Below, piece by piece: positions 1,286 through 53,766 of a stretch of DNA of 64,000 bases. Made by a program: the position numbers and the translations under genes. The notes beneath the pieces were generated by a model. The model saw only the letters and a program-made list of their open reading frames with translations. It had not been told where the DNA came from and searched no databases. The stretch comes from an uncultured Gammaproteobacteria bacterium (GTDB taxonomy: Bacteria; Patescibacteriota; Patescibacteriia; SG8-24; DYFX01): assembly GCA_964404275.1 (NCBI GenBank), contig CAYOJH010000004.1, positions 5,172-69,171 on the forward strand, read 5' to 3'. How positions within the stretch are numbered: position 1 is the first letter of the stretch; each line of letters begins with the position of its first letter.

Positions 1286-3022
1286 ATGAAACGTCTGACG
1301 AACGAGGATCTCGCCGAGAAAATTGAGGAGACCGGGCAGCTCTACGAGATGCAGGGCGTTCAATTCAAGCCGCGAGCTTACGCGCGAGCGGCGGAGCAGA
1401 TCGCCTCGTTTGGACAGAGCATCGCCGATCTCTACAAAGAAAAGGGCGAGAGAGGTTTGCGCGAAATTCCCGGCGTCGGCCCCGGCATTGCCGGACATAT
1501 CGCCGAAATGCTTGAGACCGGAACGTTTTCGGAATTGAAGAAGCTGAAAAAGGCGACGCCCATCGACGTGCATGGTTTGCAGCGCGTCGAACACGTCGGG
1601 CCGAAGACAGCGCTCGCGCTCTATAAGAAACTCGGCGTGAAAAACGTCGCCGATCTGCGCAAAGCCGCCGAAGCCGGCAAGCTCATCAACGTCGTCAACG
1701 CGAAATTGGCGGAAAAAATCACGAAGGGTCTCGAATTTTTGAAAACCTCAGGCACGCGCCAAGTGCTCGGTCACATTTTGCCGCTGGCCGGACGGATCGA
1801 AGCCGATCTCCGCGACGTGTCCGGCGTTTCGCATGCCGCCGTGGCCGGTTCGGTGCGCCGCAAGCAGGAAACGATCGGCGATTTGGATTTCATCGTCGTC
1901 GCGAACGATCCCGAAGCCGTGATGGAACGCTTCATGAAATTTCCGCACGTCGTCGAAACGATCGAGCACGGCCCGACCATGACGATCGTGCGCCTCAAGA
2001 ACGGCATGCACGCCGACGTGCGCATCGTCTCTGGCGACGCCTACGGCGCGGTGCTCCAGCATTTCACCGGTTCCAAGGAACACAACATCGCACTGCGCAC
2101 GCTGGCCGTGAAGCGCGGATTGAAACTGAACGAGTACGGTTTGTGGAAAGGCAAGAAGCGCCTGGCCGCTCGGACGGAAGAAGACGTCTACAAAGCGCTC
2201 GGGCTTCCGTACATCGAACCGGAACTCCGCACGAATACGGGAGAGATCGAGGCGGCCAAAGCCGGCACATTGCCGAAGCTGATCCCCTACGGATCGGTGC
2301 GCGGCGATCTGCAAGTGCAAACCTCCTGGACCGACGGCGCGGCCACGATCGAAAAGATGGCGGCCGAAGCCAAGACGCGCGGCATGGAGTACATCGCCAT
2401 CACCGATCACACCAAGGCGCTGGCGATGACGGGCGGCCTGGATGAAAAGCGTTTGGCGCAACAAGGCAAAGAGATCGACAAGCTGAACAAGACGCAAAAA
2501 AACTTCACGATCCTGAAAGGGACGGAGTGCGACATCTTGAAGGACGGTCGCATGGATCTGAACGACGAAGCGCTGGCGAAACTCGATTTTGTCGGCGGCT
2601 CGATCCATTCGTACTTCCGCTTGCCGAAGGAAGAACAGACCGCGCGCATGATCACCGCGATGAAAAATCCGCACGTCGACTGCATCTTCCATCCGACCGG
2701 ACGCATCCTGAACCGCCGTCCGCCGTATGAGATCGACATGCTCGCGGTCCTCAAAGCCGCCAAAGCGACCGGCACCGCCATGGAGATCGACGCCTATCCC
2801 GACCGCAGCGACCTGCGCGACGAACACGTCCGCATGGCCGTCGGGCTCGGCGTGAAGCTCCTGATCGACACCGATGCGCATCATCCATCGCACCTCGGCT
2901 ACCTCGACCTCGGCGTCGCCATCGCCCGCCGCGGCTGGGCCTCGAAGAGCGACGTGCTCAACACGCGCCCCGTCGGAGAACTGCTGAAGTGGCTCAAGAC
3001 GCCGAAACACAAACGCCGCTGA
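1286..3022 (+). CDS. polX: DNA polymerase X family protein with C-terminal PHP phosphoesterase domain
   Basis: Pol-beta-like N-terminus with HhH (GVGPGIAGHI), nucleotidyltransferase region (GDLDFIVV), C-terminal PHP motifs (ITDHTKA..., IDTDAHH). Confidence 0.85.
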   Translation: MKRLTNEDLAEKIEETGQLYEMQGVQFKPRAYARAAEQIASFGQSIADLYKEKGERGLREIPGVGPGIAGHIAEMLETGTFSELKKLKKATPIDVHGLQRVEHVGPKTALALYKKLGVKNVADLRKAAEAGKLINVVNAKLAEKITKGLEFLKTSGTRQVLGHILPLAGRIEADLRDVSGVSHAAVAGSVRRKQETIGDLDFIVVANDPEAVMERFMKFPHVVETIEHGPTMTIVRLKNGMHADVRIVSGDAYGAVLQHFTGSKEHNIALRTLAVKRGLKLNEYGLWKGKKRLAARTEEDVYKALGLPYIEPELRTNTGEIEAAKAGTLPKLIPYGSVRGDLQVQTSWTDGAATIEKMAAEAKTRGMEYIAITDHTKALAMTGGLDEKRLAQQGKEIDKLNKTQKNFTILKGTECDILKDGRMDLNDEALAKLDFVGGSIHSYFRLPKEEQTARMITAMKNPHVDCIFHPTGRILNRRPPYEIDMLAVLKAAKATGTAMEIDAYPDRSDLRDEHVRMAVGLGVKLLIDTDAHHPSHLGYLDLGVAIARRGWASKSDVLNTRPVGELLKWLKTPKHKRR

Positions 3023-3042
3023 TGGACAGCGGCGTTCGCGCT

Positions 3043-3835
3043 TCAACCTTGCTTGGAAGAAGCGTCGATCGATATTTCGACGCCTTGACCGGCGCCCGTT
3101 CCTTTCTCGGCTCCTTGAGCGGGCTTCTCTTCTTCCGATTTTTCCTCCGTCGTTTTCTCTTTCTTTTCTTTTTCTTCGACTCCGGCGCGCTCTTCTTCCA
3201 GCTTCTTATCGACGCGTTCTTCGGCCTCTTTCGTCAAACTCTTGTCGAATTCTTTCATGAGTTCCGGAAGCTGCTTCAGAATCGCCGGCAAGGCCTTTAT
3301 GCCTTCTTTGAAGGCTGCGGCCAAGCCCTTCGCGGTTTCAGGGCTGAGACCGGAGCCTCCGCCTTCCAATGAGCGGCCGTCGCCGCGCTTTCCGCCTTTC
3401 AACATGCTTGCGAAATCTTTCGAATCCATCGATTCGAATTCCTTGAAAATCTCGTCGATCTTTTCTTGAAGAATTTTTTCTTTCTCTTCTTCGATCAAGC
3501 GTTCTTTCTCCTGGTGGCTGACGAGTTCTTTCTTTTCTTTTTCCAATTCTTCTTGGCGTTCCTCGAGCGCCTCCAGATTTTCCTGGTCCGTTGAAAGGCT
3601 CGGCGGATTTTCCTTGAGCGGCGGCAAGCCCAGCGACTCCCGCGTCTTGTTCAATTCCTTCGAGGTTTCGTCGATGGACTCTCTCAAGTTTTTCGCCTGC
3701 TCCTGCCCGCTTTCAAGCTCGCTTTCCAACCGTTCTTGTTTCCCGCCCGACGATTCAGCCGCCTGCTCTGATCGATGCTCGCTTGGATTCGGCTGGGTTT
3801 CTTGCGCCTTGGGCGCGCCTTCGTATTTGGACATA
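3043..3835 (-). CDS. Glu/Lys-rich coiled-coil hypothetical protein (low complexity); listed ORF extends to 4887 but the upstream part overlaps the tRNA and + strand genes
   Basis: ORF from MSKYEGAPK...; highly charged E/K repeats, locally lower GC from gaa/aag codons. Confidence 0.45.
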
Positions 3836-3902
3836 AACCGTAAAACATTTAGCTTCCCCAGGATAGCAGCAGGGCGACAAAAGGTAAAAAGAGCGCCCGC
3901 TG

Positions 3903-3937
3903 ACCCTGCACCGTCTGGTGCAGGGCGGCGTTTTTTG
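3903..3937. terminator. hairpin CCCTGCACC-gtct-GGTGCAGGG + T6 (member of a recurring hairpin family), bidirectional-looking
   Basis: A-run before and T-run after a perfect 9-bp stem. Confidence 0.55.
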
Positions 3938-3954
3938 TTAGCGTGTGCCGGTGA

Positions 3955-4040
3955 GCCCGGGTGGCGGAATGGTATACGCTCGCCACTTAAAATGGCGCGC
4001 CCGCAAGGGCATGAGGGTTCGAGTCCCTCCCCGGGTACCA
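3955..4040 (+). tRNA. tRNA-Leu (anticodon TAA), type II with long variable arm
   Basis: acceptor GCCCGGG/CCCGGGT, anticodon loop CTTAAAA, T-arm GGTTCGAGTCC, ends ACCA. Confidence 0.85.
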
Positions 4041-4137
4041 GCAAAAAAACTTCTCTTGGAGGAGTTTTTTTGCCCGTAAGAATCGCGATCCGTTTACGTT
4101 GTGGGTTGCGTGGGGATCGAAAAAAGGAGGTGCACCC

Positions 4138-4731
4138 ATGCCGAACCGAGCTGTCGTGAAGCTTCCCATGAGGCTTCCGAGAGATCAGATCCAGGAACTG
4201 CACGCCGAGCTGGAACGCCATGCCGAGCTGGCGGCCGAAGTCGCCAGGAAACGGCAGAAGACGGAAGCGCTCCACGAGCAGTATGTGCGCGCCGCCATGC
4301 GCGCTCGGGACTATGATCCGGAACATGAAGCATTGGCGCTGTCCGAAGGCTTGATCGATTGGGTCCATGCTTTCGAAGAGAGCGCCCTCCGCACGAAGCT
4401 TCAAGGACAGTTCGGAACCGGCGAGATGCCGATCGCCTTCGCGGAGATTTCGCTCACCGCGGGAAGCGCCTCGCTCGCCTTGCGCGGGGAACTCTGCGTG
4501 TACATCCACCCGAATGCCACGCTTGACGGCATCTATCACTACGTCGAATTCGCCGACGGCTTCATCGTGCGCCAAGGCCAGGATCTCAAGACCGCGCAGG
4601 ACCTTCTTCATCAAATCCACCTTCAGATGCTTCGCCCGTTGCATCGGGAAGTCATCGAGGATGCCGTGTGCTACCGACACATCCAGAAGTGGATGAAAGC
4701 GCAAAGCCAGCGCGTGCTCAGCGACGGCTGA
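4138..4731 (+). CDS. hypothetical protein, member 1 of a tandem three-paralog family
   Basis: RBS AAGGAGGT 6 nt before ATG; shares motifs LIDWVxxFExSxLRTxLQ, IHPxxxxxGIYxYxE, HxQMLRxxHREV with the next two genes. Confidence 0.55.
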   Translation: MPNRAVVKLPMRLPRDQIQELHAELERHAELAAEVARKRQKTEALHEQYVRAAMRARDYDPEHEALALSEGLIDWVHAFEESALRTKLQGQFGTGEMPIAFAEISLTAGSASLALRGELCVYIHPNATLDGIYHYVEFADGFIVRQGQDLKTAQDLLHQIHLQMLRPLHREVIEDAVCYRHIQKWMKAQSQRVLSDG

Positions 4732-4846
4732 CGACGACTTGACGCCCCGAAACACCCGTGCTATTTTCTCTCGTTCCGCCGCGAACCGCAGCGGAAATAC
4801 CCTTGCTTTAAAACGTGAGAGAAACGAGAAAGGACGGGTGGAGACC

Positions 4847-5437
4847 ATGTCGGAGGCCAGGTTCCGCATCCCTTCTGCGATCATCAAAGCTTTGAAGAAG
4901 CACGAACAGGCTTCGGAGAAGCGGCGGAAACAGGCTACGGAAGCCGAGAGGCTCTACGAGCAGTACGTGCGTCCCTGCAGTTGCGCGGAGATCGATCAGA
5001 CATCGATACCGTACGCCAGGGATTTGATCGACTGGGTCAACGAATTCGAGGGCAGCTGCCTGCGCACGACGCTGCAGTACCAGCTCGGCGAAGCGGACGT
5101 GCCGATCTGCCGCAAGTCGGCCTCGCTCGAAGCGGAGGCCGACGGCAGCCGCATCGTGATCGAGATCGGCGGCGAGCTGCGGATCCGCATCCATCCGGAG
5201 GGCGGAAGGAACGGGATATATCGGTACGCCGAGATCTGCAACGGCGTGCTCATCCATCAGAATCTCAACCGCAACAACATCGATACCCCGTTCGTCCTGG
5301 CGATGCGCGTGCCGCCCGTGATTCTCAAGCAGATCCATCGGGAGGTCGTCGTGAATCAAGACGTCTGGCCCAGGATCGAGAGATGGGTGAAGACGAAAAG
5401 CGCGAAAATCCTCAGGAACACTCTGACCGGCGGCTGA
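4847..5437 (+). CDS. hypothetical protein, member 2 of the tandem paralog family
   Basis: clear similarity to 4138..4731 over most of its length. Confidence 0.55.
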   Translation: MSEARFRIPSAIIKALKKHEQASEKRRKQATEAERLYEQYVRPCSCAEIDQTSIPYARDLIDWVNEFEGSCLRTTLQYQLGEADVPICRKSASLEAEADGSRIVIEIGGELRIRIHPEGGRNGIYRYAEICNGVLIHQNLNRNNIDTPFVLAMRVPPVILKQIHREVVVNQDVWPRIERWVKTKSAKILRNTLTGG

Positions 5438-5460
5438 CGAAGCCGCCTTTTTCTTTTCCA

Positions 5461-5489
5461 TTGACAAAACCGCCTGAAGCTGGTACGTT
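5461..5489 (+). promoter_or_regulatory. sigma70-like promoter TTGACAaaacc-N17-TACGTT
   Basis: matches the recurring TTGACAAAACC -35 motif of this genome; upstream of 5535 gene. Confidence 0.4.
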
Positions 5490-5534
5490 CGCTCGTCGCT
5501 CTTTGCCCACCCCCAGCCCAACGTGAGGTCCGCC

Positions 5535-6104
5535 ATGATCCGTGATCTGCCCAAGCAAGTTCCCACCATCGTCCTCGCCGTCGCCGACCGCGTCATCAAG
5601 GAAAGGGAGCGGTTCGAAAACAACCGCTCCGTCGCCATCAGCGCCTTCCGTGCGCACGAGCTGCTGGACCGCGATCTGAGCGCGGAAACCACCGCCGAAC
5701 TCGAAACCCGGGCCGAAGCGATCTGTGACTGGGGCGTGAACGTCCGCGAGGCGCTGCCGATCGTGCGGCTCTACCGCTGGTTCAAAACGGACGCTCCGCC
5801 CGCGCTGACGGTCGTGAACCACCAGATCACGCTCAAGCCCGTCGGGTCGGCCCCCGGCGGCACGCTCAAGATGCGCTTGGATCTCGAGCTCGATCCCGAC
5901 CGCGACGTGCTCTTCCGCCACCACGAGTGGTTCGACGGATATCGCGTGGCGGGCGGCGGCGTCATGAACACCGGCACCTCGCTGCTCATGTCGCTGCACT
6001 CCGAGATGCTCCGTCAGGTCCACGACCTGATCGCCGAGAACCAGATCTGGGAACGCGCCACCAACGACTTCACGAGGCTCCTCGAGAGCTTCAAGGACAG
6101 GTAA
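5535..6104 (+). CDS. hypothetical protein, divergent member 3 of the tandem paralog family
   Basis: C-terminal region HSEMLRQVHDLIAENQIWER resembles HLQMLRPLHREVIEDAVCYRHIQKW of member 1. Confidence 0.45.
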   Translation: MIRDLPKQVPTIVLAVADRVIKERERFENNRSVAISAFRAHELLDRDLSAETTAELETRAEAICDWGVNVREALPIVRLYRWFKTDAPPALTVVNHQITLKPVGSAPGGTLKMRLDLELDPDRDVLFRHHEWFDGYRVAGGGVMNTGTSLLMSLHSEMLRQVHDLIAENQIWERATNDFTRLLESFKDR

Positions 6105-6121
6105 CGCCTGTCTTTTTTTGT

Positions 6122-6157
6122 TGACGCAAAAACTGACGGCCGTCAGTTTTTGCGTCA
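6122..6157. repeat. perfect 36-bp palindromic repeat TGACGCAAAAACTGACGGCCGTCAGTTTTTGCGTCA (copy 1 of 4)
   Basis: perfect inverted repeat; related copies at 13309, 40359, 40895. Confidence 0.8.
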
Positions 6158-6197
6158 GTTGCGCCGTTCGCCGTTTCTCCCCTACGATAGAACTACT

Positions 6198-7253
6198 ATG
6201 GAAGAAATCGTCGCCAAAGCGCCGCCCCGACCCGCACCGGCTGGTGCAGGTCCCCGCGACGTCGCGCCGACCGCCCAGCCGGCCGAACAGGCTTTCGACG
6301 CGCGCCTGCGCCCGAAACGGCTTTCGGAATTCGTCGGCCAGCAGAAGCTGAAGGATCATTTGGCCGTCTTCCTCGGCGCCGCCCAGAAGCGCGGCGAGCC
6401 GATCGAGCACACGCTGCTCTACGGCAACCCCGGTCTCGGCAAGACGACGCTCGCGCACATCATCGGCAACGAGATGGGCGTGAACGTCCGCACGACCTCC
6501 GGTCCGGCGCTCGAACGCGTCGGCGACCTGGCGGCGATCCTGACGAACCTCGAAGAAGGCGACATCCTGTTCATCGACGAAATCCACCGGCTCAACAAAT
6601 TGATCGAAGAGGTGCTCTATCCCGCCATGGAGGATTTCGCGCTCGATCTCGTGATCGGCAAAGGCCCGTCGGCGCGCACGCTGCGCATGGATCTCCCCCG
6701 CTTCACCATGATCGGCGCCACCACGCGCCTCTCGCTCCTGTCCGCGCCGCTGCGCGATCGCTTTGGCGTCACGTATCATCTCGATTTCTACGGCGCGGAC
6801 GATCTTCGGCTGATCGTCGAACGCAACGCCGGCGTGCTGGGCTGCGCGGTCCGTCCCGACGCGGCGCTGCGCATCGCCGAGCGCGCCCGCCGCACGCCGC
6901 GCGTCGCCAACCGCCTCCTGAAACGCGTGCGCGACTACGCGGACTTTCACGGGAATGGTACGATGACCGTGGATATCGTCGATCGCGCCCTCACCATGCT
7001 TGAGATCGACGCCGTCGGCCTCGATCAAGTCGACCGCCTGATCCTCGAAACGGTCATCTCGAAATTCGCCGGCGGACCGGTCGGCCTGAACGCGCTCGCC
7101 GCCGCCACTTCGGAAGAGATGGAAACGATCGAGACGATCTACGAACCGTATCTCATCCAGCTCGGCCTGCTGCATCGCACGCCACGCGGCCGCATGGCCA
7201 CCGACGCCGCCTACGTCCACCTCGGACTGACGGCGCCGCAGAAACTCCTATGA
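6198..7253 (+). CDS. ruvB: Holliday junction branch-migration helicase RuvB (with Ala/Pro-rich N-terminal extension)
   Basis: Walker [15 protein letters not shown], Walker [11 protein letters not shown], RuvB C-terminal winged helix. Confidence 0.9.
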
Positions 7254-7501
7254 TCTCGTTCCCTCCTTTTTTCCTGCTGATCCCGTACGGACTGCTCCTG
7301 GCGGTCATGGCGTTTTTCGCGCTGGTCGACATCGTCAGCTTGGCGCGCTTCGGCGCCCGCAATTGGGTCGGGCTGCTCGCGAGCTTCATCTTCATCGCCG
7401 GCGCGGCCTTCATCCTGTACGTGACCTGGAATCTGCTGGCCGACGTTTCCTGGACGACGCCGATGCCGCTCATGTCGATTCCTTCCGTCCCCGCGCTCTG
7501 A
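7250..7501 (+). CDS. small membrane protein (2 TM), start overlaps ruvB stop (ATGA)
   Basis: hydrophobic ORF translationally coupled to ruvB. Confidence 0.4.
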
Positions 7502-7502
7502 T

Positions 7503-8117
7503 ATGTCGATCTACCAGCTGTTCACTCCGCTCCAAGGCGAAAAAGTCGAGTTCTCGCTGCGACGCCATCCGATCGTCTTCGTGGGCCCGGTCTTCACGTT
7601 CCTGGTCATGACCGCGGTGCCCTTCGTGGCGCGCCAAGTGCTCTTGGCCGGCAAACCGCTCTCGCAGACGATCGTGAATCCGTTCGCGCAGATCGGCATG
7701 ATCCTGCTCGTGTCCATCTACTACCTCGGCATCTGGACGTTCTTTTTCAGCGAATTCATGGATTACTACCTGGACATCGATATCGTCACCAACGACCGCA
7801 TTCTTGACATCAATCAGCACGGGCTCTTCGGCCGGACGATCTCGGAACTCGACCTGACCCGCGTCCAGGACGTGCTCTCGGAAACCAAGGGCATCATCCC
7901 GACGCTCTTGAGCTACGGCCGCGTCGAAATCCAAACCGCCGCCAAGGAAGAGAACTTCATCTTCGAGCAGGTGCCCGATCCGCACGGCGTCCGCCAACGT
8001 ATCCTCGAACTCGCCGCGCTCGATCGCAAGAAAGAAGCGCGCGACATCATGAACGGCGCGACGCCCGGCCAAGCGGCCGCCGCCGAGAATGAGATGAAAC
8101 GTCAGCAAGGGTTGTAA
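7503..8117 (+). CDS. hypothetical membrane protein (two N-terminal TM helices + soluble domain)
   Basis: ORF with TM segments; no confident family. Confidence 0.5.
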   Translation: MSIYQLFTPLQGEKVEFSLRRHPIVFVGPVFTFLVMTAVPFVARQVLLAGKPLSQTIVNPFAQIGMILLVSIYYLGIWTFFFSEFMDYYLDIDIVTNDRILDINQHGLFGRTISELDLTRVQDVLSETKGIIPTLLSYGRVEIQTAAKEENFIFEQVPDPHGVRQRILELAALDRKKEARDIMNGATPGQAAAAENEMKRQQGL

Positions 8118-12758: not shown

Positions 12759-14014
12759 CGGTCATCGCCAGCGCGGCGCTCCTGCCATTCGAACGCCTCG
12801 GCGCCTTCACGCTCGCCGGCGTCAACATCCGGCCGAGCCAGATCGCGCTCGCGATCGCTTGGCTGCTTTGGATCAGGCTCTGGCTCCTCGGCCGGACGAA
12901 ACTCGCTTGGCGCCGTCCCTCCCTCCTCGCGCTGGCCGGTTTTTTCGCGGTCGCGGGCCTTTCGCTGTTGAACGCGGAAAATCTTCCGCGCTCCCTCGTC
13001 GTGCTCGGCTTCACGCTCTTCACCGCCTCGCTCGCGCTCTTGCTTCCCAACGTCATCAAAGACGAGCGCGCCTTCAAGCGCATCCGCGTCGCCATTGTGC
13101 TCTCCGCCGCGCTCGTCTCCTTGCTCGGCCTCTGGCAATTCGTGGCCGACATGCTCGGCGCGCCGCTTTGGATGACCGGATTGCGCGAGACCTATTCGCG
13201 CGCGATCCTCGGCTTCACGCGCGTGCAAGGCGCCTCGGCCGAGCCGCTCTATTTCGCCGACTACCTGCTGCTGCCCATCTCCTTGGTCGTCACCTGGTTG
13301 TTGCGCCATGACGCAAAAACTGACGGCCGTCGGTTTTTGCGCCCCGTGCAAATCCTGCTCGTCGCCATGTTGATTGACGTTTTCCTCACCGCTTCGCGCG
13401 GCGGCTGGCTCGGCCTCGGCGTGACACTCGTCGTGCTGTTGTGGTGCGAACGGAAGCGCTTGAAGGATTGGCGGCCGATCGCGCGGGCGGGCGGAATCGC
13501 CGTCGCGGCGCTCTCGCTTGGCGTGCTTCTGCTCGGAAGTTTCTTTTCTCCGACGCGCGAAACGGTGACGGATATTTTCTTCACCCACGTCACCAACATC
13601 ACGGGCGGCGCGGCGTATGACGACCGCGCGCAAACGATCTCCGCCGCGCTCGACGCCTGGCGCGCGCATCCTTGGATCGGCGTCGGCTTCGGCGGCTACG
13701 GCCCGTTCGTCTCGACCTTCGCCTTCGCCAAACCGGATGCAGGCTGGCCGATCGTGAATAATGAAACGTTGGAACTGCTCGCCGAAACGGGAGTATTTGG
13801 ACTTGTTGCCTTTCTGATCTTCCTCGTCACGCTTATGCATGAAACCAGCGGGCGGCGCAGGCGATATCCGCAGGAGGCAACACGCATCGCTTGCCTCGCG
13901 GCGCTGGCAGGCATGTTGGCGCAGTACCAGACCTTCTCAACCTTGTATATCATGCATGTGTGGTTTACGATCGGCCTGCTTTTAGCCGCGTCTGAGGCTG
14001 GAAAACCGGCTTGA
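12737..14014 (+). CDS. O-antigen ligase / Wzy_C-family membrane protein; carries an in-frame copy of the 36-bp palindromic repeat
   Basis: multi-TM, periplasmic loop with RGGWLGLG; repeat encodes HDAKTDGRRFLRP. Confidence 0.6.
   Translation: MDNALVVAVIASAALLPFERLGAFTLAGVNIRPSQIALAIAWLLWIRLWLLGRTKLAWRRPSLLALAGFFAVAGLSLLNAENLPRSLVVLGFTLFTASLALLLPNVIKDERAFKRIRVAIVLSAALVSLLGLWQFVADMLGAPLWMTGLRETYSRAILGFTRVQGASAEPLYFADYLLLPISLVVTWLLRHDAKTDGRRFLRPVQILLVAMLIDVFLTASRGGWLGLGVTLVVLLWCERKRLKDWRPIARAGGIAVAALSLGVLLLGSFFSPTRETVTDIFFTHVTNITGGAAYDDRAQTISAALDAWRAHPWIGVGFGGYGPFVSTFAFAKPDAGWPIVNNETLELLAETGVFGLVAFLIFLVTLMHETSGRRRRYPQEATRIACLAALAGMLAQYQTFSTLYIMHVWFTIGLLLAASEAGKPA
13309..13342. repeat. copy 2 of the palindromic repeat (slightly degenerate) located inside a CDS, in frame
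   Basis: TGACGCAAAAACTGACGGCCGTCGGTTTTTGCGC. Confidence 0.75.
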
Positions 14015-14309: not shown

Positions 14310-14732
14310 ATGACCCGCAGGCTCAATATTGATCATGTCCGTTTCTTGGCGCACGAGCTCGCGCAACGGCTCATGGAGTGGGGTGAACCCATTCCGCCGT
14401 TTGAAACACGTTATCCGGAAAAGCTGGAATCCTGCCTAACGACGCCGTTCGCGACATATGACAAGAAGGAACTCTACCCGACGCTTGAAGAAAAATCCGC
14501 GATCCTGTTCTATTTGATGATCAAAAATCACCCTTTCAAAAACGGGAATAAAAGGGTGGCAGTGACAACTCTTCTTGTTTTTCTCTCCGCCAACGGAAAA
14601 TGGATGAAAGTCGATGAGCAGCAGCTCTATTCTTTCGCCAAGTGGGTGGCGGAGAGCTTGCCGAGTTTGAAAGACGCGACAGTCTTCGCCGTTATTGACT
14701 TCTTAAAAAAACAGATCGTAAACGCTGCATGA
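14310..14732 (+). CDS. Doc/Fic-family toxin (death-on-curing-like)
   Basis: Doc-type motif HPFKNGNKRVAVT; ~140 aa; low GC relative to flanks. Confidence 0.7.
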   Translation: MTRRLNIDHVRFLAHELAQRLMEWGEPIPPFETRYPEKLESCLTTPFATYDKKELYPTLEEKSAILFYLMIKNHPFKNGNKRVAVTTLLVFLSANGKWMKVDEQQLYSFAKWVAESLPSLKDATVFAVIDFLKKQIVNAA

Positions 14733-17288: not shown

Positions 17289-17984
17289 TTAGTTCGGACG
17301 GCGCTCGAGCTCTTGCTCGAAGTCCTGCCGGAAGCGCTTGATGTCTTCGGGCGAGAGCGTGGCGAGCTGCTGGCGATCGATGATCTTCCAGCGCGTGCAG
17401 ACGCGCATCATGGCCGCGTGCCGGCGCTTGACCTCCTCGAGATGCGCGAGCCGGCAGAGGTACGTGTAGCCGAAGCCGTCCACGAACGGCACGAGCTTGG
17501 CCGGATGATCGAACTGCGCGCGGATCACGAGCAGCATCGCGGGCTGGCGGATCGGCATCAGCGCGTCGGGGCTCGGAAACGTCGCCTCGACCGAACGCGT
17601 GAACAGCTTCTCGGACAGCTCGTAGTCGATCCGGTCGCGCTCACCGCCGACGAAGGCCTGCGGATCGGCCGCGCGGACTCTGGCGTCCGTCGCGGCGATG
17701 AAGGCCTTAGCGTCCTCGACGGACACCTGCGCGTCCCAGAGAAGCGATCCGTTCCGACCGAGCGGAATGAGGTACGGATCGGCGTGCACGACCTCGTCGT
17801 GCCGCGCCATGACGTGCATCTGCCTGGCGCCGAAAATGGCGGAAACGCAGACGAACATCGTCTTCGGTTCGGTCGCGGCGATGAACAGGATCGGCCCTTC
17901 CGGAACCGTCCGGCCGAAGCAGCGCGTCAGGTCGAACAGATCGTCGATCAGCGCATCGGTCAAATCCGGCAGTTCTTGGCGCAT
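17289..17984 (-). CDS. hypothetical protein
   Basis: ORF from MRQELPDLTD...; no recognisable domain. Confidence 0.45.
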   Translation of the reverse strand: MRQELPDLTDALIDDLFDLTRCFGRTVPEGPILFIAATEPKTMFVCVSAIFGARQMHVMARHDEVVHADPYLIPLGRNGSLLWDAQVSVEDAKAFIAATDARVRAADPQAFVGGERDRIDYELSEKLFTRSVEATFPSPDALMPIRQPAMLLVIRAQFDHPAKLVPFVDGFGYTYLCRLAHLEEVKRRHAAMMRVCTRWKIIDRQQLATLSPEDIKRFRQDFEQELERRPN

Positions 17985-18070
17985 GGGCTTCCTCCTTGGA
18001 AGGTCCTGCTCCACCTGTACGTTTTTTCCCGCAAAAAGTCAATTCTGTTATACTTTCCCATATCCCGCCT

Positions 18071-18943
18071 ATGAAGATCCGCAAAGCCATCCTGCCCGTC
18101 GCCGGCATGGGAACCCGCTTCCTGCCCGCCACCAAGGCCCAGCCGAAAGAGATGCTCACGATCGTGGACAAGCCCGTGATCCAGTACGTCGTGGAAGAAG
18201 CCGTCGCGTCCGGCATCGAGGAGATCATCTTCGTGACCTCGCTCACCAAGCGCGCGATCGAGGATCATTTCGACCGCAACTTCGAGCTCGAAATGCGCCT
18301 CAAGGAAAAGGACCGCAAGAACGATCTGGCGGAACTCAAGAAGATTTCGAATCTCGCCAAGTTCGCCTTCGTCCGCCAACAAGCGCCGCTCGGCGACGGC
18401 CACGCCATCCTGGCCGCCCTGCCGTTCGTCGATCCGAAAGAGCCGGTCGCGATCCTGTTCGGCGACGACATCTTCGACGCGCGGATTCCCGTCACGGCCC
18501 AGCTGATCGACGCCTACGACAAATACCACGATCCGATCATCGCGCTCTGCGACGTCGGCAGGAAGAACGTCTCGAGTTACGGCATCGCCAGCGGCACAAT
18601 GACCTCGAAGTCGATCATGGAACTCAACGGCTTCGTCGAGAAGCCGCGAGCCGAAGAAGCGCCTTCGACGCTGGCCGCGGTCGGCCGGTACATCATCACG
18701 CCGGAGATCATGGAGATCCTGAAGACCCAGAAGCCCGGCAAAGACGGCGAGATCCGGCTGGCCGACGCTTTCATCACCCATCTCTCGAGAGGCGCCGCCA
18801 TGTACGGCCGCCTCGCCGACGCCGTCCGTTACGACTGCGGCAACAAATCCCAATTCCTCCTGGCCAACGTCGCCTACGGCCTCCGCCACGCCCAGGTCGC
18901 TCCCGACTTCAAGAAAGGCCTCAAGAAACTTCTTTCGCACTGA
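18071..18943 (+). CDS. galU: UTP--glucose-1-phosphate uridylyltransferase
   Basis: N-terminal AILPVAGMGTRFLPATKAQPKEML nucleotidyltransferase signature. Confidence 0.85.
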   Translation: MKIRKAILPVAGMGTRFLPATKAQPKEMLTIVDKPVIQYVVEEAVASGIEEIIFVTSLTKRAIEDHFDRNFELEMRLKEKDRKNDLAELKKISNLAKFAFVRQQAPLGDGHAILAALPFVDPKEPVAILFGDDIFDARIPVTAQLIDAYDKYHDPIIALCDVGRKNVSSYGIASGTMTSKSIMELNGFVEKPRAEEAPSTLAAVGRYIITPEIMEILKTQKPGKDGEIRLADAFITHLSRGAAMYGRLADAVRYDCGNKSQFLLANVAYGLRHAQVAPDFKKGLKKLLSH

Positions 18944-18948
18944 GCCCT

Positions 18949-20343
18949 ATGAACCTTCGCACGCGCTTCGCCGCCGCCGTCCTCCTGGCCGCTTTGGTCG
19001 TGAGCGGCGCCGGCTGCTTCTCGGCCAGCGTCACCGCGCCGCCAGCTTCGTCAAAACCGATCACGCTCACCTATTGGCGCGTGCTTGATGACGGCGACGC
19101 GTTCGACGAGATCATCAGCGCCTATCGCGCGCTGCATCCGAACGTGACGATCAATTACCGCAAGCTGCGGCTCGACGAATACGAGAACGCGCTGGTCAAC
19201 GCGCTGGCGGAAGACCGCGGCCCGGACATTCTCTCGGTGCATAACGACTGGATGCGCGCCTATCAGCCCAAGCTCCTGCCCGCGCCCGCCTCGGTCAAAC
19301 TCGCCTTCCGCGAAGTCCAGGGCATCCAGAAAAATCAGGTCTGGGTCGAAAAGACGCTGCCGATGATCACGCCCGCGCAGGTCAAAGACCAGTTCGTCGA
19401 CCAGGTCGGGCACGACGTCGTCATCAAAGGCCCGGCGAGCGATCCGAAGAAAGGCATCGTCGACCAGCTCTGGGGCTTGCCGATGGCGCTCGACACGATG
19501 GTGCTCTATTACAACAAGGACGTCCTGAACGCCGCCGGCATCCCGACGCCAGCCACGACCTGGGCCGAATTCCAGGATCACGTGAAGCGCCTGACGAAAT
19601 ACGACAGCCAAGGCAAGCTGGTCAAGCCGGCCGCCGGCATCGGCACCTCGCAGAACGTCGAGCGCTCGTTCGATCTTCTCTCGCTTCTCATGATGCAGAA
19701 CGGCGCGCAGATGGCGGACGGGAACGGCCTGCCGACCTTCAACCGCACGCCGGCGGACATGACCCGCGACACCCCGCCGGGCGACGAAGCCCTGATCTTC
19801 TACACGGACTTCGCCAACCCTTCCAAGGAAGTCTTCACCTGGGACGACACCCAGCCGAATTCCTACGACGCCTTCGTGTCCGGCAAAACCGCCTACTTCT
19901 TCGGCTACGCCTACCACCTGCCGATGATCCGCGCCCAGGCGCCGAAACTGAATTTCGGCATCGCCAACATCCCGCAGATCGATCCGGCCAACAAAGTGAA
20001 CTTCGCCAACTACTGGGTCGAAGCGGTCTCGAAGAAGACGAAGTATCCCGATGTGGCCTGGGACTTCCTCCAGTTCGCCGCCAAGGCCGACCAAGCCAAG
20101 ACGTATCTGGCCAAAACGGGTCGGCCGACGGCCCTCCGCAGCCTGGTCAACACCCAGCTGTCCGATCCCGATCTCGGCGTCTTCGCCTCGCAGGTCCTGA
20201 CCGCCAAGAGCTGGTACCAGGGCGCGAACATCAAGGCGACTGAATCCGCCTTCGACGAGATGATCGACACGACCCTGGCCGGCACCCCGCCCGAACGCGC
20301 CACCGACCTGGCGGCCCAGACGATCGCGCAGACGGTGCACTGA
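18949..20343 (+). CDS. ABC transporter solute-binding lipoprotein (family 1, carbohydrate-type)
   Basis: lipobox LVVSGAGC; SBP_bac_1-like length and motifs; listed ORF from 17698 is an upstream extension. Confidence 0.7.
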   Translation: MNLRTRFAAAVLLAALVVSGAGCFSASVTAPPASSKPITLTYWRVLDDGDAFDEIISAYRALHPNVTINYRKLRLDEYENALVNALAEDRGPDILSVHNDWMRAYQPKLLPAPASVKLAFREVQGIQKNQVWVEKTLPMITPAQVKDQFVDQVGHDVVIKGPASDPKKGIVDQLWGLPMALDTMVLYYNKDVLNAAGIPTPATTWAEFQDHVKRLTKYDSQGKLVKPAAGIGTSQNVERSFDLLSLLMMQNGAQMADGNGLPTFNRTPADMTRDTPPGDEALIFYTDFANPSKEVFTWDDTQPNSYDAFVSGKTAYFFGYAYHLPMIRAQAPKLNFGIANIPQIDPANKVNFANYWVEAVSKKTKYPDVAWDFLQFAAKADQAKTYLAKTGRPTALRSLVNTQLSDPDLGVFASQVLTAKSWYQGANIKATESAFDEMIDTTLAGTPPERATDLAAQTIAQTVH

Positions 20344-20359
20344 CAACTCTCCGCATCCA

Positions 20360-20456
20360 CAACTCCCCCTGCCCCCTCTTTAGCAAAGAGGGGGTTTTGG
20401 TTAAAAAATGTCCTCCCCTTTGCTAAAGGGGAGGTGCCGAAGGCGGAGGGGTTGTG
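20360..20456. repeat. ~100-bp double-hairpin repeat element, copy 1 (upstream flank of pilin array)
   Basis: CAACTCCCCCTGCCCCCTCTTTAGCAAAGAGGGGG...CCTCCCCTTTGCTAAAGGGGAGGTGCCGAAGGCGGAGGGGTTGTG; near-identical to 25732..25830. Confidence 0.85.
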
Positions 20457-20472
20457 TTACACTATTTTCACT

Positions 20473-21105
20473 ATGAAGCGTTTTCTCCGCGTCGCCTTGC
20501 CCGTCGCGCTCGTGCTCGTTCCGGTGGCCGTTTCGGCCATCACGATCCTGCCTCCTTGCACGGCCACGGGCGATTGCGGCGTGACGGATATCCTGGCCGT
20601 GCTGGTCAACGTGGCCGAATACCTGCTGGGCATTTCGGGCGCGGTCGCGCTGGCGATGTTCGTCTACGGCGGCTTCACCTTCGTGCTCGCGGCCGGCGAT
20701 AAAACGAAAGTCGGCAAGGCGATCGGCATCCTGAAGAGCGCGGTCATCGGCATCGCCATCATTTTCCTCTCCGGCGTGATCGTGCGCTTCGCGACGAAAG
20801 CGCTGACCGGCGGCAGCTCGGCCATCCCGACCGTCGGCGAGAACTGCGACCCCATCTCGAAAAAGAGCGCGTCGGGAGGAGCCGGCCTCTGGATTTCCGT
20901 GCCGCCCGGCGTCGACGACAACGGCAAGCTCTTGCCGGAACAGTTGATGTGCATCCACAAGAAAGGCGGCTGCGCGGAACTTCAAGGCGTGCTGACCAGC
21001 CGGCATCGATTGGAAAAATATTCTTGCAAAGCGATCAACACCGCCGCGAGCTGCGTGCGCAGCCTATGCCCAGAGCAAGGCGCCGACTACGCCTGCTGCC
21101 TCTGA
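20473..21105 (+). CDS. VirB2/TrbC-like ('T4SS pilin'-like) secreted membrane protein, paralog 1, with C-terminal Cys-rich extension
   Basis: signal peptide; hydrophobic helix-charged loop-helix core ...FVYGGFTFVLAAGDKTKVGKAIGILKSAVIGIAIIFLSGVIV. Confidence 0.65.
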   Translation: MKRFLRVALPVALVLVPVAVSAITILPPCTATGDCGVTDILAVLVNVAEYLLGISGAVALAMFVYGGFTFVLAAGDKTKVGKAIGILKSAVIGIAIIFLSGVIVRFATKALTGGSSAIPTVGENCDPISKKSASGGAGLWISVPPGVDDNGKLLPEQLMCIHKKGGCAELQGVLTSRHRLEKYSCKAINTAASCVRSLCPEQGADYACCL

Positions 21106-21106
21106 T

Positions 21107-22117
21107 ATGAAACGCCTTTCCGTATGTATCGCCGCGATCGTCTTCGGACTTTCTTTGGCGCCGGCGGCCTTCGCCCTCACTCTCCCTTGCTATTGCAAAT
21201 ACGGGGCGAGCAAGGCCGGCTGGGATTCGGATTCGGCGCGTTTCTGCCCGAATGAAACGTATTTCTCGGGTACCGTCGATGCCGGCACGTTCCCGCTCTC
21301 CTATGGCAGCACGGCTGACGACAACTGCCAGGCGCGTTGCGCCTCGGAGGGATCCGCCTTTGTCGATATTACGACCGTTTCTCCGAGTCAGTGGGCTTCC
21401 TTCGGGAGTTCAGACAACCTGGTGCTGGCGGAAAAAAGCTACTGCGTGCTCCGCTCGGACAGCGCCGCGACGGTCCAAGGCTGGTCTTCCAGCTACTTGA
21501 GCTGCAAAAAACCGCTCAACAGCATCGTCTATAAGGACAATCCGACCGGCCAGGTTCCGGACAGCTGCTCGTATTGCTTCTGCAAGTTCAAGACGGGCGG
21601 CTCGACGCCCTCGAGCTGCAGCGGAAAAACGACGATGGTCCACATCACCGGCGACGCGAGCACGTGTTCGAACATCTGCACGAGCTTCGGCCTCGACAAC
21701 GGCGACAGCACGAAAGACTACGGCAGCCATTGCGATTTCCAGCTTTCCGACCAGTGCGCGAAGCCGCTTAACCCCGACGGGAGCGGCTGCCAGTCCGAGC
21801 TCGGGGCCATTTCCGATCAGAAGAAAGCCGACGCCTTCCAGGCCAGCCATGGCACCGCGCTCGGTTTGACGCTGCCGCTCGGCGACATCACCTTTCCGCA
21901 GCTGATCGGCCGCGTCATCAAGCAGCTGCTCGGCATCGTCGGCGCCTTGGCGCTCGTCTTCTTCATCTGGGGCGGCCTCAAATACATGACGGCCCAAGGC
22001 GACGACAAGAAAATCAAAGAGGCGCGCGACATGATCGTCGCCGCCATTTCCGGCTTGGCCGCGATCTTCCTGTCCTACGCGCTCCTGACACTGCTCATCA
22101 ATACGCTGTCGAAATAG
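21107..22117 (+). CDS. VirB2/TrbC-like pilin paralog 2 with large N-terminal Cys-rich domain
   Basis: signal peptide, ~20 Cys, C-terminal core LLGIVGALALVFFIWGGLKYMTAQGDDKKIKEARDMIVAAISGLAAIFLSYALL. Confidence 0.65.
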   Translation: MKRLSVCIAAIVFGLSLAPAAFALTLPCYCKYGASKAGWDSDSARFCPNETYFSGTVDAGTFPLSYGSTADDNCQARCASEGSAFVDITTVSPSQWASFGSSDNLVLAEKSYCVLRSDSAATVQGWSSSYLSCKKPLNSIVYKDNPTGQVPDSCSYCFCKFKTGGSTPSSCSGKTTMVHITGDASTCSNICTSFGLDNGDSTKDYGSHCDFQLSDQCAKPLNPDGSGCQSELGAISDQKKADAFQASHGTALGLTLPLGDITFPQLIGRVIKQLLGIVGALALVFFIWGGLKYMTAQGDDKKIKEARDMIVAAISGLAAIFLSYALLTLLINTLSK

Positions 22118-22118
22118 T

Positions 22119-22487
22119 ATGAAACGCAAGATTGCCCGCCTTCTCTCGACGCTCGTCATCTTCGCCGCAAGCGCGTCCGGAGCCTTGGCCGATACCGGTT
22201 CAAGTGCCACGAGTTCCTCCGACAAGACCGTCAGATTGGTGAATCCGCTTAACGTTTCGACGGTGCCCCAGCTCGTGGCCAACCTGCTCAAGGCCGCCAT
22301 GGGGATCATCGGCGCCTTGGCACTCTTGGTCTTCATCTACGGGGGATTCATTTGGTTGACCTCGGGAGGCGAGGCTGGTAAAATTCAGGCAGGCAAAGAC
22401 GCCATGAAGTGGGCGGCGATCGGACTCGTCGTGATCTTCACCAGTTACGCGCTCGTCAGTTTCGTGTTCAAAGCGATAACGGGCTAA
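22119..22487 (+). CDS. VirB2/TrbC-like pilin paralog 3
   Basis: signal peptide + core GIIGALALLVFIYGGFIWLTSGGEAGKIQAGKDAMKWAAIGLVVIFTSYALV. Confidence 0.65.
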   Translation: MKRKIARLLSTLVIFAASASGALADTGSSATSSSDKTVRLVNPLNVSTVPQLVANLLKAAMGIIGALALLVFIYGGFIWLTSGGEAGKIQAGKDAMKWAAIGLVVIFTSYALVSFVFKAITG

Positions 22488-22509
22488 CGCCTGAAAGGAG
22501 GTGAGTTGC

Positions 22510-22899
22510 ATGACGAAAAAAACGCTTATCAAGGGTCTGATCAGCACGGCAATGGTTGCGACAATGGCGCTCCCCATGGTCGCTTTGGCTCAAAACCCCG
22601 TGACGTCCAACGAACTTCTGCCCGGCCAGATCGCCACCGAGCTCGGCCAGCAGCAGCAGGACCTGCGCATCACCATCGCGAGAATCATCCGCACGGCCAT
22701 GAGCCTTCTGGGCATCGTCGCCGTTCTGATCATTCTGTACGGCGGCTTCAAGTGGATGACCTCCGGCGGATCCGACGAAGCCACGGGCGACGCGAAGAAG
22801 ATCATTACGGCCGGCGTGATCGGTCTCGTGATCATTCTGACCGCGTACGCGATCGCTTCCTTCGTGATCAACAGCCTCGTAACCGCGACCTCCCAGTAA
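22510..22899 (+). CDS. VirB2/TrbC-like pilin paralog 4
   Basis: RBS AAAGGAGGTGA 8 nt upstream; core LLGIVAVLIILYGGFKWMTSGGSDEATGDAKKIITAGVIGLVIILTAYAIA. Confidence 0.65.
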   Translation: MTKKTLIKGLISTAMVATMALPMVALAQNPVTSNELLPGQIATELGQQQQDLRITIARIIRTAMSLLGIVAVLIILYGGFKWMTSGGSDEATGDAKKIITAGVIGLVIILTAYAIASFVINSLVTATSQ

Positions 22900-22910
22900 C
22901 GCATCTTTAC

Positions 22911-22982
22911 GCGACCCTGCACCGTATGGTGCAGGGTCGTCGCAAGGACTCGGGAAATGCCCTGCACCGTACGGTGCAGGGC
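22911..22982 (+). repeat. two tandem hairpins CCCTGCACC-N4/5-GGTGCAGGG between pilin paralogs 4 and 5, no T-tract
   Basis: same hairpin family as 3903 and 44355. Confidence 0.6.
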
Positions 22983-23013
22983 GCCTCCGGACTCCTTGAA
23001 CCTCGAACCACGT

Positions 23014-23514
23014 ATGCGCTTGAAACGCATTCTCCTCCCCGCGCTCTGCCTGGCGGCGACCGCCCTGATGGCGATCCCGCTCGCCCACGCAGCCAGCGAC
23101 CATTTCGGACTCGACACCGCCGCCGGCGGCGCCGGCCTCAAGAATCTGGACTTGCCGACGACGATCGGCGTCCTGATCAAGAGCGTGCTCAGCTTCCTCG
23201 GCATCCTCTTCCTGGTACTCACGCTCTACGCCGGCTTCCTCTACATGACGGCCCAAGGCGACGAGAAGAAGGTCGCCAAGGCCAAGAGCATCGTGACCGG
23301 CGCGGTCATCGGCCTGGTCATCATCGCCGCCTCCTACGCGATCACGAGCTTCGTCCTCGGCGCGATCACCGGCACCGCGAGCACGTCCAACACCTCGAAC
23401 ACTTCCAATACGTCGACGATCGGCACGGTCCAGAAAGGCGGCGCGTGCACGAGCGGAAGCGATTGCGCCGCCGGCCTGATCTGCGACATCGGAGGATCCA
23501 ATACCTGCATCTGA
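23014..23514 (+). CDS. VirB2/TrbC-like pilin paralog 5 with C-terminal (TSN)n repeat and Cys-containing tail
   Basis: core FLGILFLVLTLYAGFLYMTAQGDEKKVAKAKSIVTGAVIGLVIIAASYAIT. Confidence 0.65.
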   Translation: MRLKRILLPALCLAATALMAIPLAHAASDHFGLDTAAGGAGLKNLDLPTTIGVLIKSVLSFLGILFLVLTLYAGFLYMTAQGDEKKVAKAKSIVTGAVIGLVIIAASYAITSFVLGAITGTASTSNTSNTSNTSTIGTVQKGGACTSGSDCAAGLICDIGGSNTCI

Positions 23515-23515
23515 T

Positions 23516-23854
23516 ATGCGCACTCTCCACAAACTCGCCCAGGACTTCGGAGCCGGAAATCTCAAAACCGTCGGCGATACGGCCAAGATCACCTCGAACG
23601 TCACGCTGCCCGTCCTGATCGGCAACCTGATCCGCACGTTCATCGGGCTCCTCGGCATCATCTTCCTCCTGCTCACGGTCTACGCCGGTTTCCTCTGGCT
23701 GACGGCCCAAGGCGACGAGAAGAAGGTCGAGCATGCCAAAGGCCTGCTCAAGAACGCCGTGATCGGCCTCGTGATCATCGCCGCCGCCTACGCCATCTCC
23801 GCCTTCGTCGTCAACGCGCTCGCCCACGTGGCCGGCGGCACGAATCCCACCTAA
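23516..23854 (+). CDS. VirB2/TrbC-like pilin paralog 6
   Basis: core FIGLLGIIFLLLTVYAGFLWLTAQGDEKKVEHAKGLLKNAVIGLVIIAAAYAIS. Confidence 0.65.
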   Translation: MRTLHKLAQDFGAGNLKTVGDTAKITSNVTLPVLIGNLIRTFIGLLGIIFLLLTVYAGFLWLTAQGDEKKVEHAKGLLKNAVIGLVIIAAAYAISAFVVNALAHVAGGTNPT

Positions 23855-23876
23855 CCTCGCTCATCATTTACCTTCT

Positions 23877-24299
23877 ATGGCGAAAAAAATCCTTCTGGGG
23901 CTGCTCTCGCTCCTGACCGTCGGCCAAATGGCCTTGGCCGCGCTGCCCGCCGGCGCGCAGGCTCCCTGCGATCCTTCGACCGGCAACTCGCTCGGCTGTC
24001 TCAGCGCCGCGAATCCCAGCAACACGCCGACCGACGCGGTCACGGCCGGCCAGCAGCTGCCGCTCCTGATCGGACGCCTCATCCGCACGATGCTCGGTCT
24101 CCTCGGCATCATCTTCCTGGTCCTGATGGTCTACGCCGGCTTCCTCTGGATGACGGCCCGCGGCGATGACGAACCCGTCACGAAAGCCAAAGACATCATC
24201 CGCCAGGCGATCATCGGCCTCATCATCGTCTTCGTCGCCTACGCCTTGACCGGCTTCATCATCAACGCGGTGCTCCGCGCCACCTCGGGAACGCCATAA
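23877..24299 (+). CDS. VirB2/TrbC-like pilin paralog 7
   Basis: signal peptide; core MLGLLGIIFLVLMVYAGFLWMTARGDDEPVTKAKDIIRQAIIGLIIVFVAYALT. Confidence 0.65.
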   Translation: MAKKILLGLLSLLTVGQMALAALPAGAQAPCDPSTGNSLGCLSAANPSNTPTDAVTAGQQLPLLIGRLIRTMLGLLGIIFLVLMVYAGFLWMTARGDDEPVTKAKDIIRQAIIGLIIVFVAYALTGFIINAVLRATSGTP

Positions 24300-40358: not shown

Positions 40359-40394
40359 TGACGTAAATTCTGACGGCCGTCAGTTTTTGCGTCA
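40359..40394. repeat. palindromic repeat copy 3 (TGACGTAAATTCTGACGGCCGTCAGTTTTTGCGTCA)
   Basis: right arm identical to copy 1, left arm variant. Confidence 0.75.
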
Positions 40395-53763: not shown

Positions 53764-53766
53764 GCA

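Follow-up and report, generated by a model that had tools for sequence, protein, structure and literature searches.

Three paralogous genes between tRNA-Leu and ruvB

The 64-kb stretch of contig CAYOJH010000004.1 analyzed here (the window) carries three tandem genes of an orphan protein family between a tRNA-Leu(UAA) gene (3955 to 4040, + strand, called by ARAGORN) and ruvB (6198 to 7253, + strand; Pfam RuvB_N at 7.7e-77, with AAA_lid_4 and RuvB_C), which are the conserved landmarks upstream and downstream of the slot. The three open reading frames (ORFs), all on the + strand, lie where a preliminary description of this DNA had placed them: gene A (4138 to 4731; 197 amino acids [aa]; Shine-Dalgarno [SD] sequence AAGGAGG), gene B (4847 to 5437; 196 aa), and gene C (5535 to 6104; 189 aa). 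Each is preceded by an SD-like sequence, and their GC content at third codon positions (GC3; 0.74 to 0.88) matches that of their neighbors and of the genome. Gene calling on two Logan contigs, both 100% identical to the window, found these three genes independently. A and B belong to a subtype referred to below as AB-type, B being a lineage-specific duplicate of A, while C represents the C-type, the core member of the family, which is present in nearly all related loci. No further family copies were found within the window.

The kinship of the three genes, proposed earlier from conserved blocks alone, holds up in pairwise BLASTp comparisons for A and B (35% identity over 181 aa, E = 2e-30) and for A and C (26% identity over 124 aa, E = 6e-8). 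B and C compared alone give no significant match (E = 0.07), and C is tied to A/B through profiles and intermediate sequences: a single hidden Markov model (HMM) recovers all three, and A matches C-type orthologs of other genomes at 1e-7 to 4e-6. The conserved blocks themselves proved specific to A and B, with only fragments of them (DW..., H.EMLRQ.H) recurring in C. A and B match each other (3e-29) more closely than either matches AB-type genes of other genomes (2e-19 to 8e-26), and the nearest relatives of A outside the window are L005_g3, P0014, and P0024. This pattern points to an old duplication in the lineage of the window, and at 35% identity A and B are not the products of a recent amplification.

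An orphan family of small soluble proteins

Searches of A, B, and C against Pfam, NCBIfam, PHROGs, and PADLOC returned no match, and in PADLOC-DB none of the three was hit by an HMM even at E ≤ 10. When 29 family members were scanned singly, no Pfam family was matched by more than one of them. A profile search of PDB sequences produced coiled-coil noise only, and collections of phage, plasmid, and viral-contig sequences contained no match to the family; the earlier judgment by eye that no known domain is present therefore stands. When 1.84 billion cluster representatives were searched exhaustively with HMMER, only 32 proteins were recovered at E ≤ 0.001, nearly all of them 177 to 206 aa long. 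Family proteins are small (175 to 215 aa) and soluble, mostly with a pI of 5 to 7, and show no signal peptide, membrane segment, or conserved polar or catalytic residue; the only nearly invariant positions in the family alignment are a Pro, a Trp, and a Leu.

AlphaFold produced a confident model of C from an alignment of 29 sequences (pLDDT 95.6, pTM 0.85), whereas a 3-sequence alignment reached a pLDDT of only 47. The model consists of a long helix at residues 11 to 73 (α1), a short helix, four long antiparallel strands (90 to 144), and three C-terminal helices. Foldseek, the structural check that the preliminary description had proposed, gave no significant fold match to this model in PDB or BFVD. 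UBC/RWD-like, V-ATPase-E/FliH-like, and MHC-platform-like resemblances were considered and set aside, as they derived from secondary-structure order and weak Foldseek rows and carried no significant score. Because A, B, and C belong to no family that could be tested, including any of the described immunity families or folds tested, the family appears to be new, as does its predicted fold, the novelty of the latter being relative to PDB and BFVD only.

A fixed chromosomal slot with variable gene content

Every family member that we looked up has a Patescibacteria-type neighborhood and a place upstream of ruvB, or a contig that would allow this placement; P0029 is of the latter kind, the gene downstream of it being unannotated. 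The single GTDB representative that has the family is named "Minisyncoccota bacterium." A 20-kb block is syntenic between the window and related metagenomic loci (numbered with the prefix L), including L012, L008, L015, L018, and others, in the order Trx-VKOR-PolX-...-tRNA-Leu(UAA)-family-ruvB-82aa-bPH_2-S11 peptidase-...-Polysacc_synt-GT4-Wzy. The family is adjoined by tRNA-Leu(UAA) in L006, L008, L009, L012, L015, L022, L025, L032, and L033, and C orthologs lie directly upstream of ruvB in L003, L006, L008, L012, L020, L022, L025, L026, L028, L032, L035, and others. Of the 20 distinct loci of the clade, 19 in total carry family genes upstream of ruvB. RuvB delimits this clade well: the window sequence has tight relatives at 74 to 91% identity, with every other RuvB at or below 72%, and identity between the window and family-bearing relatives is 85 to 92%. 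Use of the ruvB promoter (see below) as a 23-nt DNA pattern retrieved 12 further ruvB loci from metagenomes (12 true loci among 18 matches), and family genes were directly upstream of ruvB in 11 of these 12. The lone exception, L016 (identical in sequence to L031; RuvB 77%), has peptide deformylase (def) and M16 peptidase genes in the slot, while the Uhrbacteria outgroup L017 has an unrelated 305-aa ORF between tRNA-Leu and ruvB. No ruvA was present in the slot in either L016/L031 or L017.

The position between a tRNA gene and ruvB had been described as typical of islands, and cargo of a tRNA-linked genomic island or a decayed mobile element would account for the adjacent tRNA and for a slot whose content varies (def and M16 peptidase in L016, the 305-aa ORF in L017, an HNH endonuclease gene in L018, a MazG-like gene in L006). 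A 33-nt direct repeat of 76% identity (3892 to 3924 and 6218 to 6250) also brackets tRNA-Leu, A, B, and C; this repeat is weak and probably due to chance, and its second copy lies within the ruvB coding sequence, in the part for the N-terminal, Pro/Ala-rich extension of the protein. Neither an integrase nor a transposase domain was found between PolX and ruvB in the window or in ~20 related loci, and across positions 3000 to 7400 the 3′ end of the tRNA is not repeated in the manner of an att site. The GC content of the family genes (0.60 to 0.65, against 0.61 for the window) is native, as are GC3 and skews. Native composition, together with the lack of an integrase and of an att-like repeat, argues against a recent island. 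Since gene order at tRNA-Leu/family/ruvB and the 20 kb of flanking synteny are common to ~20 related loci, and the family occurs at this site and nowhere else, it is inherited vertically within one clade. We therefore consider cargo of an island or mobile element to be essentially excluded.

All-against-all comparison and iterated profiles resolved at least five subtypes within the family. C-type proteins start with MxRDLPKxVP, end in KDR, and are found in all family-bearing loci with a sequenced slot except L015, whose pair of genes forms a subtype of its own. The AB-type comprises A and B of the window, L005_g3, P0014, and P0024. D-type proteins start with MAVPS and have a basic N-terminal helix, and E-type genes lie between PolX and the tRNA, directly after PolX in L006, L012, L022, and L025. 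The commonest architecture in the clade is an optional E, tRNA-Leu, an optional small ORF of 91 to 116 aa, D followed by C, a terminator, the ruvB promoter, and ruvB, with D and C spaced 11 to 22 nt apart and joined by an SD. The window is atypical in having neither D nor E, with two AB-type genes and C instead. As the preliminary description had asked, we followed copy number among relatives: it varies from 0 to 3 or more, and subtype composition varies with it. Slots sequenced to both landmarks hold one copy (L008 and L003/L033, C only), two (L015, L032), or three (the window, L006, L012, L022, L025). The net charge of the N-terminal helix is consistently +2 to +5 in D and about neutral in C, a complementarity that is suggestive, not decisive.

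Other genes are found in or near these arrays. The ORF of 91 to 116 aa (RVRLPDGRxGxVY ... DPxxLGLE), which has no Pfam match, lies between tRNA-Leu and D in many relatives (L012, 9102 to 9377; L009, 2093 to 2395; L020, 210 to 494 and 1735 to 2085; L025; L032), is 88% identical between L012 and L025, and is absent from the window. Occasional inserts typical of mobile or phage DNA are the HNH endonuclease in L018 (769 to 1272) and a MazG/PRA-PH-like pyrophosphohydrolase in L006 (9027 to 9356). In the window, the position of the + strand E-type gene of relatives is held by a gene on the − strand (3043 to 3834) whose 263-aa product is of low complexity, rich in Glu/Lys, and without a Pfam match; the gene has a lower GC3 (0.61) and was not seen in the other loci.

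Predicted separate transcription units for family genes and ruvB

Several candidate signals divide the slot, all on the + strand. The tRNA is followed by a terminator-like hairpin and T-run (4036 to 4078), an inverted repeat with 20-nt arms that are 85% complementary. A consensus scan for sigma-70 promoters, which returned 2 sites against 0.4 expected, placed one upstream of B (4739 to 4767; TTGACG-17-TATTTT, with TG); a promoter-like site upstream of C (5461 to 5489; TTGACA-17-TACGTT) was read by eye and is putative, as it was not among the sites of the strict scan. B ends in an intrinsic terminator (5429 to 5457; GGCGGC TGA CGAA GCCGCC TTTTT) whose stem extends over the final codons with the stop, and C in another (6093 to 6122; AAGGACAGG TAAC GCCTGTCTT TTTTT) whose 5′ arm consists of the K-D-R-stop codons. 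Gene A has no terminator of its own. The ruvB promoter (6159 to 6188; TTGCGC-18-TACGAT) follows and ends 9 nt before the ATG.

The overlap of codons and terminator recurs across the family. In C-type and most AB-type genes, AAG GAC AGG TAA (K-D-R-stop) is the 5′ arm of a terminator of the form AAGGACAGG-TAAC-CCTGTCCTT-TTTTT. An alignment of 16 homologous 3′ ends shows a stem of 7 pairs, 4 of them with compensatory changes, and the two arms shift in step: GGACGGA/TCCGTCC in L003, GGACAGC/GCTGTCC in L018, GACCAGC/GCTGGTC in L020_AB, and GGCGGC/GCCGCC in B of the window. A C-terminal KDR acting as a protein docking motif was considered and rejected, since its nucleotides (AAGGACAGGTAA) make up the terminator stem and change together with those of the 3′ arm. 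Because the stem codons covary in this way, conservation of KDR appears to reflect, at least in part, a constraint at the RNA level. The ruvB promoter (TTGCxC-18-TACGAT) is similarly near-invariant in the window, L003, L005, L006, L008, L012, L020, and the family-less L016, and in every locus it lies 9 nt before the ATG with no SD sequence in between, which suggests that ruvB mRNA is leaderless or has a very short leader. Given the conserved terminator after the family gene and the promoter that ruvB has for itself, family genes and ruvB would be separate transcription units, and each gene, or each D-C pair in relatives, is predicted to be an autonomous unit closed by a codon-overlapping intrinsic terminator.

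This arrangement bears on a role in DNA repair, with the family as a RuvA stand-in or as an adaptor for loading or regulation of the RuvB hexamer. Such a role would fit the constant presence of a ~190-aa gene right before ruvB, in the same orientation, the E-type copies directly behind PolX in four loci, and the fact that RuvA and RuvC are undetectable within the window. Probing the window and related loci with approximate E. coli RuvA and RuvC sequences matched only the helix-hairpin-helix (HhH) regions of PolX, and we found no literature on RuvA in Patescibacteria, also known as CPR. The terminator and the separate ruvB promoter speak against a repair accessory, as do L016/L031 and L017, which share the same ruvB, promoter, and downstream genes and have neither the family nor ruvA at this place. 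An apparent 4-nt overlap with ruvB in L003 is a start-codon miscall, since RuvB homology starts 60 nt past the stop. Furthermore, C orthologs are 37 to 47% identical where RuvB is 92 to 97% identical, a divergence that an interface conserved on RuvB could hardly accommodate. Replacement of RuvA was rejected on the basis of the miscall, the terminator/promoter split, negative profile (hhalign) and fold comparisons, and the family-less loci, and we consider a repair accessory linked to RuvB or PolX quite improbable.

Rapid divergence of C-type genes

We asked how fast the family changes relative to the block in which it resides. C orthologs are only 32 to 45% identical to C of the window, compared with 85 to 89% for RuvB, 70 to 86% for PolX, 65 to 70% for bPH_2, 58% for S11, and ~52% for the 82-aa protein. 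Between L012 and L025, amino acid identity is 97% for RuvB, 88% for the small ORF, 86% for bPH_2, 80% for E, 67% for D, and 37 to 40% for C, the fastest-evolving gene of the block. Nucleotide identity along aligned loci is 78 to 100% and falls to 44 to 58% only within C, at about codons 25 to 113. By the Nei-Gojobori method (NG86), dN/dS (omega) was 0.63 to 1.3 for C (15 genome pairs), 0.05 to 0.10 for RuvB, 0.06 to 0.45 for PolX, the 82-aa protein, and bPH_2 (PolX up to 0.43), 0.34 to 0.55 for D, 0.27 to 0.77 for E, and 0.37 for AB. Since dS of C (0.22 to 0.83) is similar to that of its neighbors, the divergence represents an excess of nonsynonymous change; an imported ancient allele would not explain it. 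C-type divergence follows RuvB divergence weakly (Spearman 0.30).

The excess is concentrated in particular parts of the protein. In sliding windows, omega was 1.3 to 1.4 on helix α1 and the last helix and 0.6 to 0.7 on the sheet and the HPEMLRQ helices. Pooled over five pairs, omega was 1.52 for α1 (bootstrap interval, 0.97 to 2.17), 0.69 for the sheet region (0.50 to 0.96), and 0.87 for the whole of gene C (0.71 to 1.09); in the pair L025-L032, dN of α1 reached 1.5 against a dS of 0.46. The suggestion in the preliminary description that the family diversifies is thereby supported for the family and above all for C, with a signature that is diversifying or near-neutral.

The main rival account of these rates is a housekeeping scaffold or oligomeric structural protein, such as a D-C heterodimer joined through the long helices, in which the helices would be spacers under weak constraint and the rapid change would come from near-neutral drift in small symbiont populations. 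Nearly universal retention at a fixed locus and the tight D-C bicistrons of paralogs are what such a protein would show, whole-gene omega of C is not above 1 (near 0.9 in the two least diverged pairs), the neighbors have a fairly high omega as well, as the PolX maximum illustrates, and helix α1 contains indels. However, C changes 2 to 20 times faster than every non-family neighbor at equal dS, and α1 of L025-L032 shows a clear surplus of dN over dS. Turnover of subtypes, with AB, D, and E gained and lost, would be unusual for a fixed structural complex, and some genomes retain C alone. On balance, we regard a structural scaffold as somewhat unlikely.

A candidate binding family, possibly shaped by diversification

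Altogether, we tentatively interpret the genes as a clade-specific family of noncatalytic binding proteins undergoing diversifying or near-neutral evolution, to which we assign a probability of roughly 0.4. The family would have arisen in one subclade of Minisyncoccota/Patescibacteria and stayed in one slot, from tRNA-Leu(UAA) to ruvB, with one subtype placed just upstream of the tRNA. Birth and death of genes would then have given rise to at least the five subtypes C, AB, D, E, and the L015 pair, and to the content of the window, C plus two AB-type genes out of the old lineage-specific duplication. Because no polar residue is invariant and the near-invariant positions are P, W, and L, the proteins may act through binding rather than catalysis, probably as homo- or hetero-oligomers of paralogs. 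The variable helical face could be the working surface, tracking a fast-changing partner, which would imply an intracellular recognition or neutralization role in genetic conflict. The opponent in that conflict might be a phage, a toxin, or the other party in a host-symbiont relationship, and the role would not be one in DNA repair. An arms-race-type recognition or neutralization role of this kind is the one we favor, about as tentatively as the binding family itself. A more specific version, in which the locus is a clade-defining, fixed, hypervariable recognition system and C with D, E, or AB partners neutralizes a phage protein, toxin, or host factor, seems to us unlikely; if true, it would represent a form of innate immunity, or a determinant of host interaction, that is new and confined to Patescibacteria.

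Several observations weigh against recognition in conflict. The preliminary description had recommended a search for partner toxins or effectors, and none adjoins the family: in none of ~20 loci does a toxin, nuclease, or phage gene lie beside it as a partner. As PADLOC, PHROGs, phages, and plasmids yielded no match either, the immunity, anti-defense, or effector role suggested there gained no support from these searches. Typical immunity and defense genes are also unlike a family that is kept almost universally at a single locus and shows no sign of horizontal spread. An omega around 1 is also compatible with weak constraint, NG86 is crude at 80% GC3, and the variable segment of C has alignment gaps. 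The α1 excess is driven largely by the single pair L025-L032, with an interval that touches 1, and A/B rates come from saturated comparisons because close orthologs of A and B are lacking.

Despite the very small genomes of Patescibacteria, members of this clade retain between one and three or more copies of an orphan gene. Its core copy changes at amino acid sites about as quickly as at silent ones, beside a nearly frozen RuvB. Hypothetical proteins are abundant in CPR, but a fixed hypervariable locus encoding a predicted new fold beside a highly conserved gene is unusual, and a locus that is fixed, always present, and hypervariable has the pattern expected at an interface of conflict or partner recognition, which is among the least understood aspects of uncultivated symbionts. 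With the ruvB promoter and tRNA-Leu as landmarks, the locus is easily found and may serve as a marker for strain-level diversification; it also gives structural and interaction work a concrete object. Should the change prove to be drift, the family would still be a clean case of a gene and a fold that were born recently and then evolved by birth and death.

Other features of the window

A perfect 36-nt palindrome (6122 to 6157; TGACGCAAAAACTGACGG|CCGTCAGTTTTTGCGTCA; 100% complementary) lies between the C terminator and the ruvB promoter. It is a dispersed repeat with four copies in the window, against 0 expected from shuffles; the others are at about 13309 to 13344, 40359 to 40394, and 40894 to 40929, and the last two flank or enter a PaaX_M/Cas2-like gene (40392 to 40940). 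Relatives lack it at the site between the C terminator and ruvB, where it is an insertion in the window and no part of the family; a REP/MITE-like repeat and an operator are both conceivable identities. Both Logan contigs stop inside the ruvB-proximal copy (position 6150).

Just upstream of tRNA-Leu (3892 to 3954) lies a conserved element, GCTGAC...CGGCGTTTTTTGTTAGCGTG (GCTGACAAaCGCGGCGTTTTTTGTTAGCGTG), which occupies the same position in L006, L008, L009, L012, L022, L025, L032, and L033. It appears to be the hairpin terminator of the preceding gene, overlapping a putative tRNA promoter (CTGACA-17-TAGCGT), and the window variant has a longer hairpin (3904 to 3925). Downstream of ruvB (7250 to 8117 in the window) there is always, in all related loci, a hydrophobic protein of 82 to 92 aa whose start overlaps the ruvB stop, followed by a bPH_2-domain protein and a convergent S11 D-Ala-D-Ala carboxypeptidase. 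This downstream synteny reaches well past the family-bearing clade and includes Uhrbacteria L017.

Farther away, a small Fic/DOC-domain gene (14310 to 14732) lies between two Wzy_C (O-antigen ligase-like) genes, and a Fic-like gene is likewise placed in L015. A second tandem paralog array, of at least six T4SS_pilin (PF18895) genes (20434 to 24299; at 20434, 21107, 22119, 23516, 23877, and others), is preceded by a gene for an 881-aa protein with a solute-binding domain (17698 to 20343). The sole tyrosine recombinase of the window (Phage_integrase and SAM_1, XerC/D-like; 53870 to 54847, − strand) is 48 kb from the family, directly beside tRNA-Arg and tRNA-His (53687 to 53842), and is unrelated to it.

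Comparison with known systems

RuvA, whose gene normally lies just upstream of ruvB, consists of an OB-fold domain (RuvA_N), two helix-hairpin-helix motifs, and the RuvB-binding domain III. Family proteins resemble it in size (~190 to 200 aa), strand, and position immediately 5′ of ruvB, but they differ in the order of secondary-structure elements, lack the OB, HhH, and domain III regions, and gave a negative profile comparison. Where ruvAB is a co-transcribed operon, the family is predicted to have its own terminator and ruvB a separate promoter; by contrast with RuvA, the family evolves very fast and is missing from sister lineages with the same ruvB. Similarly, the slot shares with tRNA-associated genomic islands the adjacency to a tRNA and a content that differs between relatives, whereas the integrase, att repeat, and foreign composition of such islands are lacking here and inheritance appears vertical.

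Among proteins that combine a coiled coil with an α-β4-α domain, we take UBC/RWD-type Spc24/Spc25 and the V-ATPase E/FliH stalk to offer a likeness, presumably a loose one given that no significant score was obtained: both have a long N-terminal helix, a four-stranded meander, and C-terminal helices, with paralogous partners side by side. Polymorphic toxin systems include poly-immunity arrays, such as the SUKH/SMI1-KNR4 and Imm families known from the work of Zhang/Aravind in 2011-2012. The family is like these arrays in consisting of tandem, diverged, small noncatalytic α+β paralogs that change fast. However, poly-immunity arrays require an adjacent toxin with a variable C-terminal domain, which is absent beside the family, and the family has no known Imm fold; its neighbors are PolX, tRNA-Leu, ruvB, small ORFs without assignment, and, rarely, HNH or MazG-like genes.

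Finally, in the FESNov catalogue of gene families from uncultivated taxa, synapomorphic families show lower dN/dS (Rodriguez del Rio et al., Nature 2023, PMC10849945). The clades there are at the level of order and the clade here is below it. In near-ubiquity within one uncultivated clade, absence elsewhere, and strongly conserved genomic context, the family described here comes closest in concept to the synapomorphic families of FESNov, while its C-type, at a dN/dS of 0.63 to 1.3, is the opposite of their low values.

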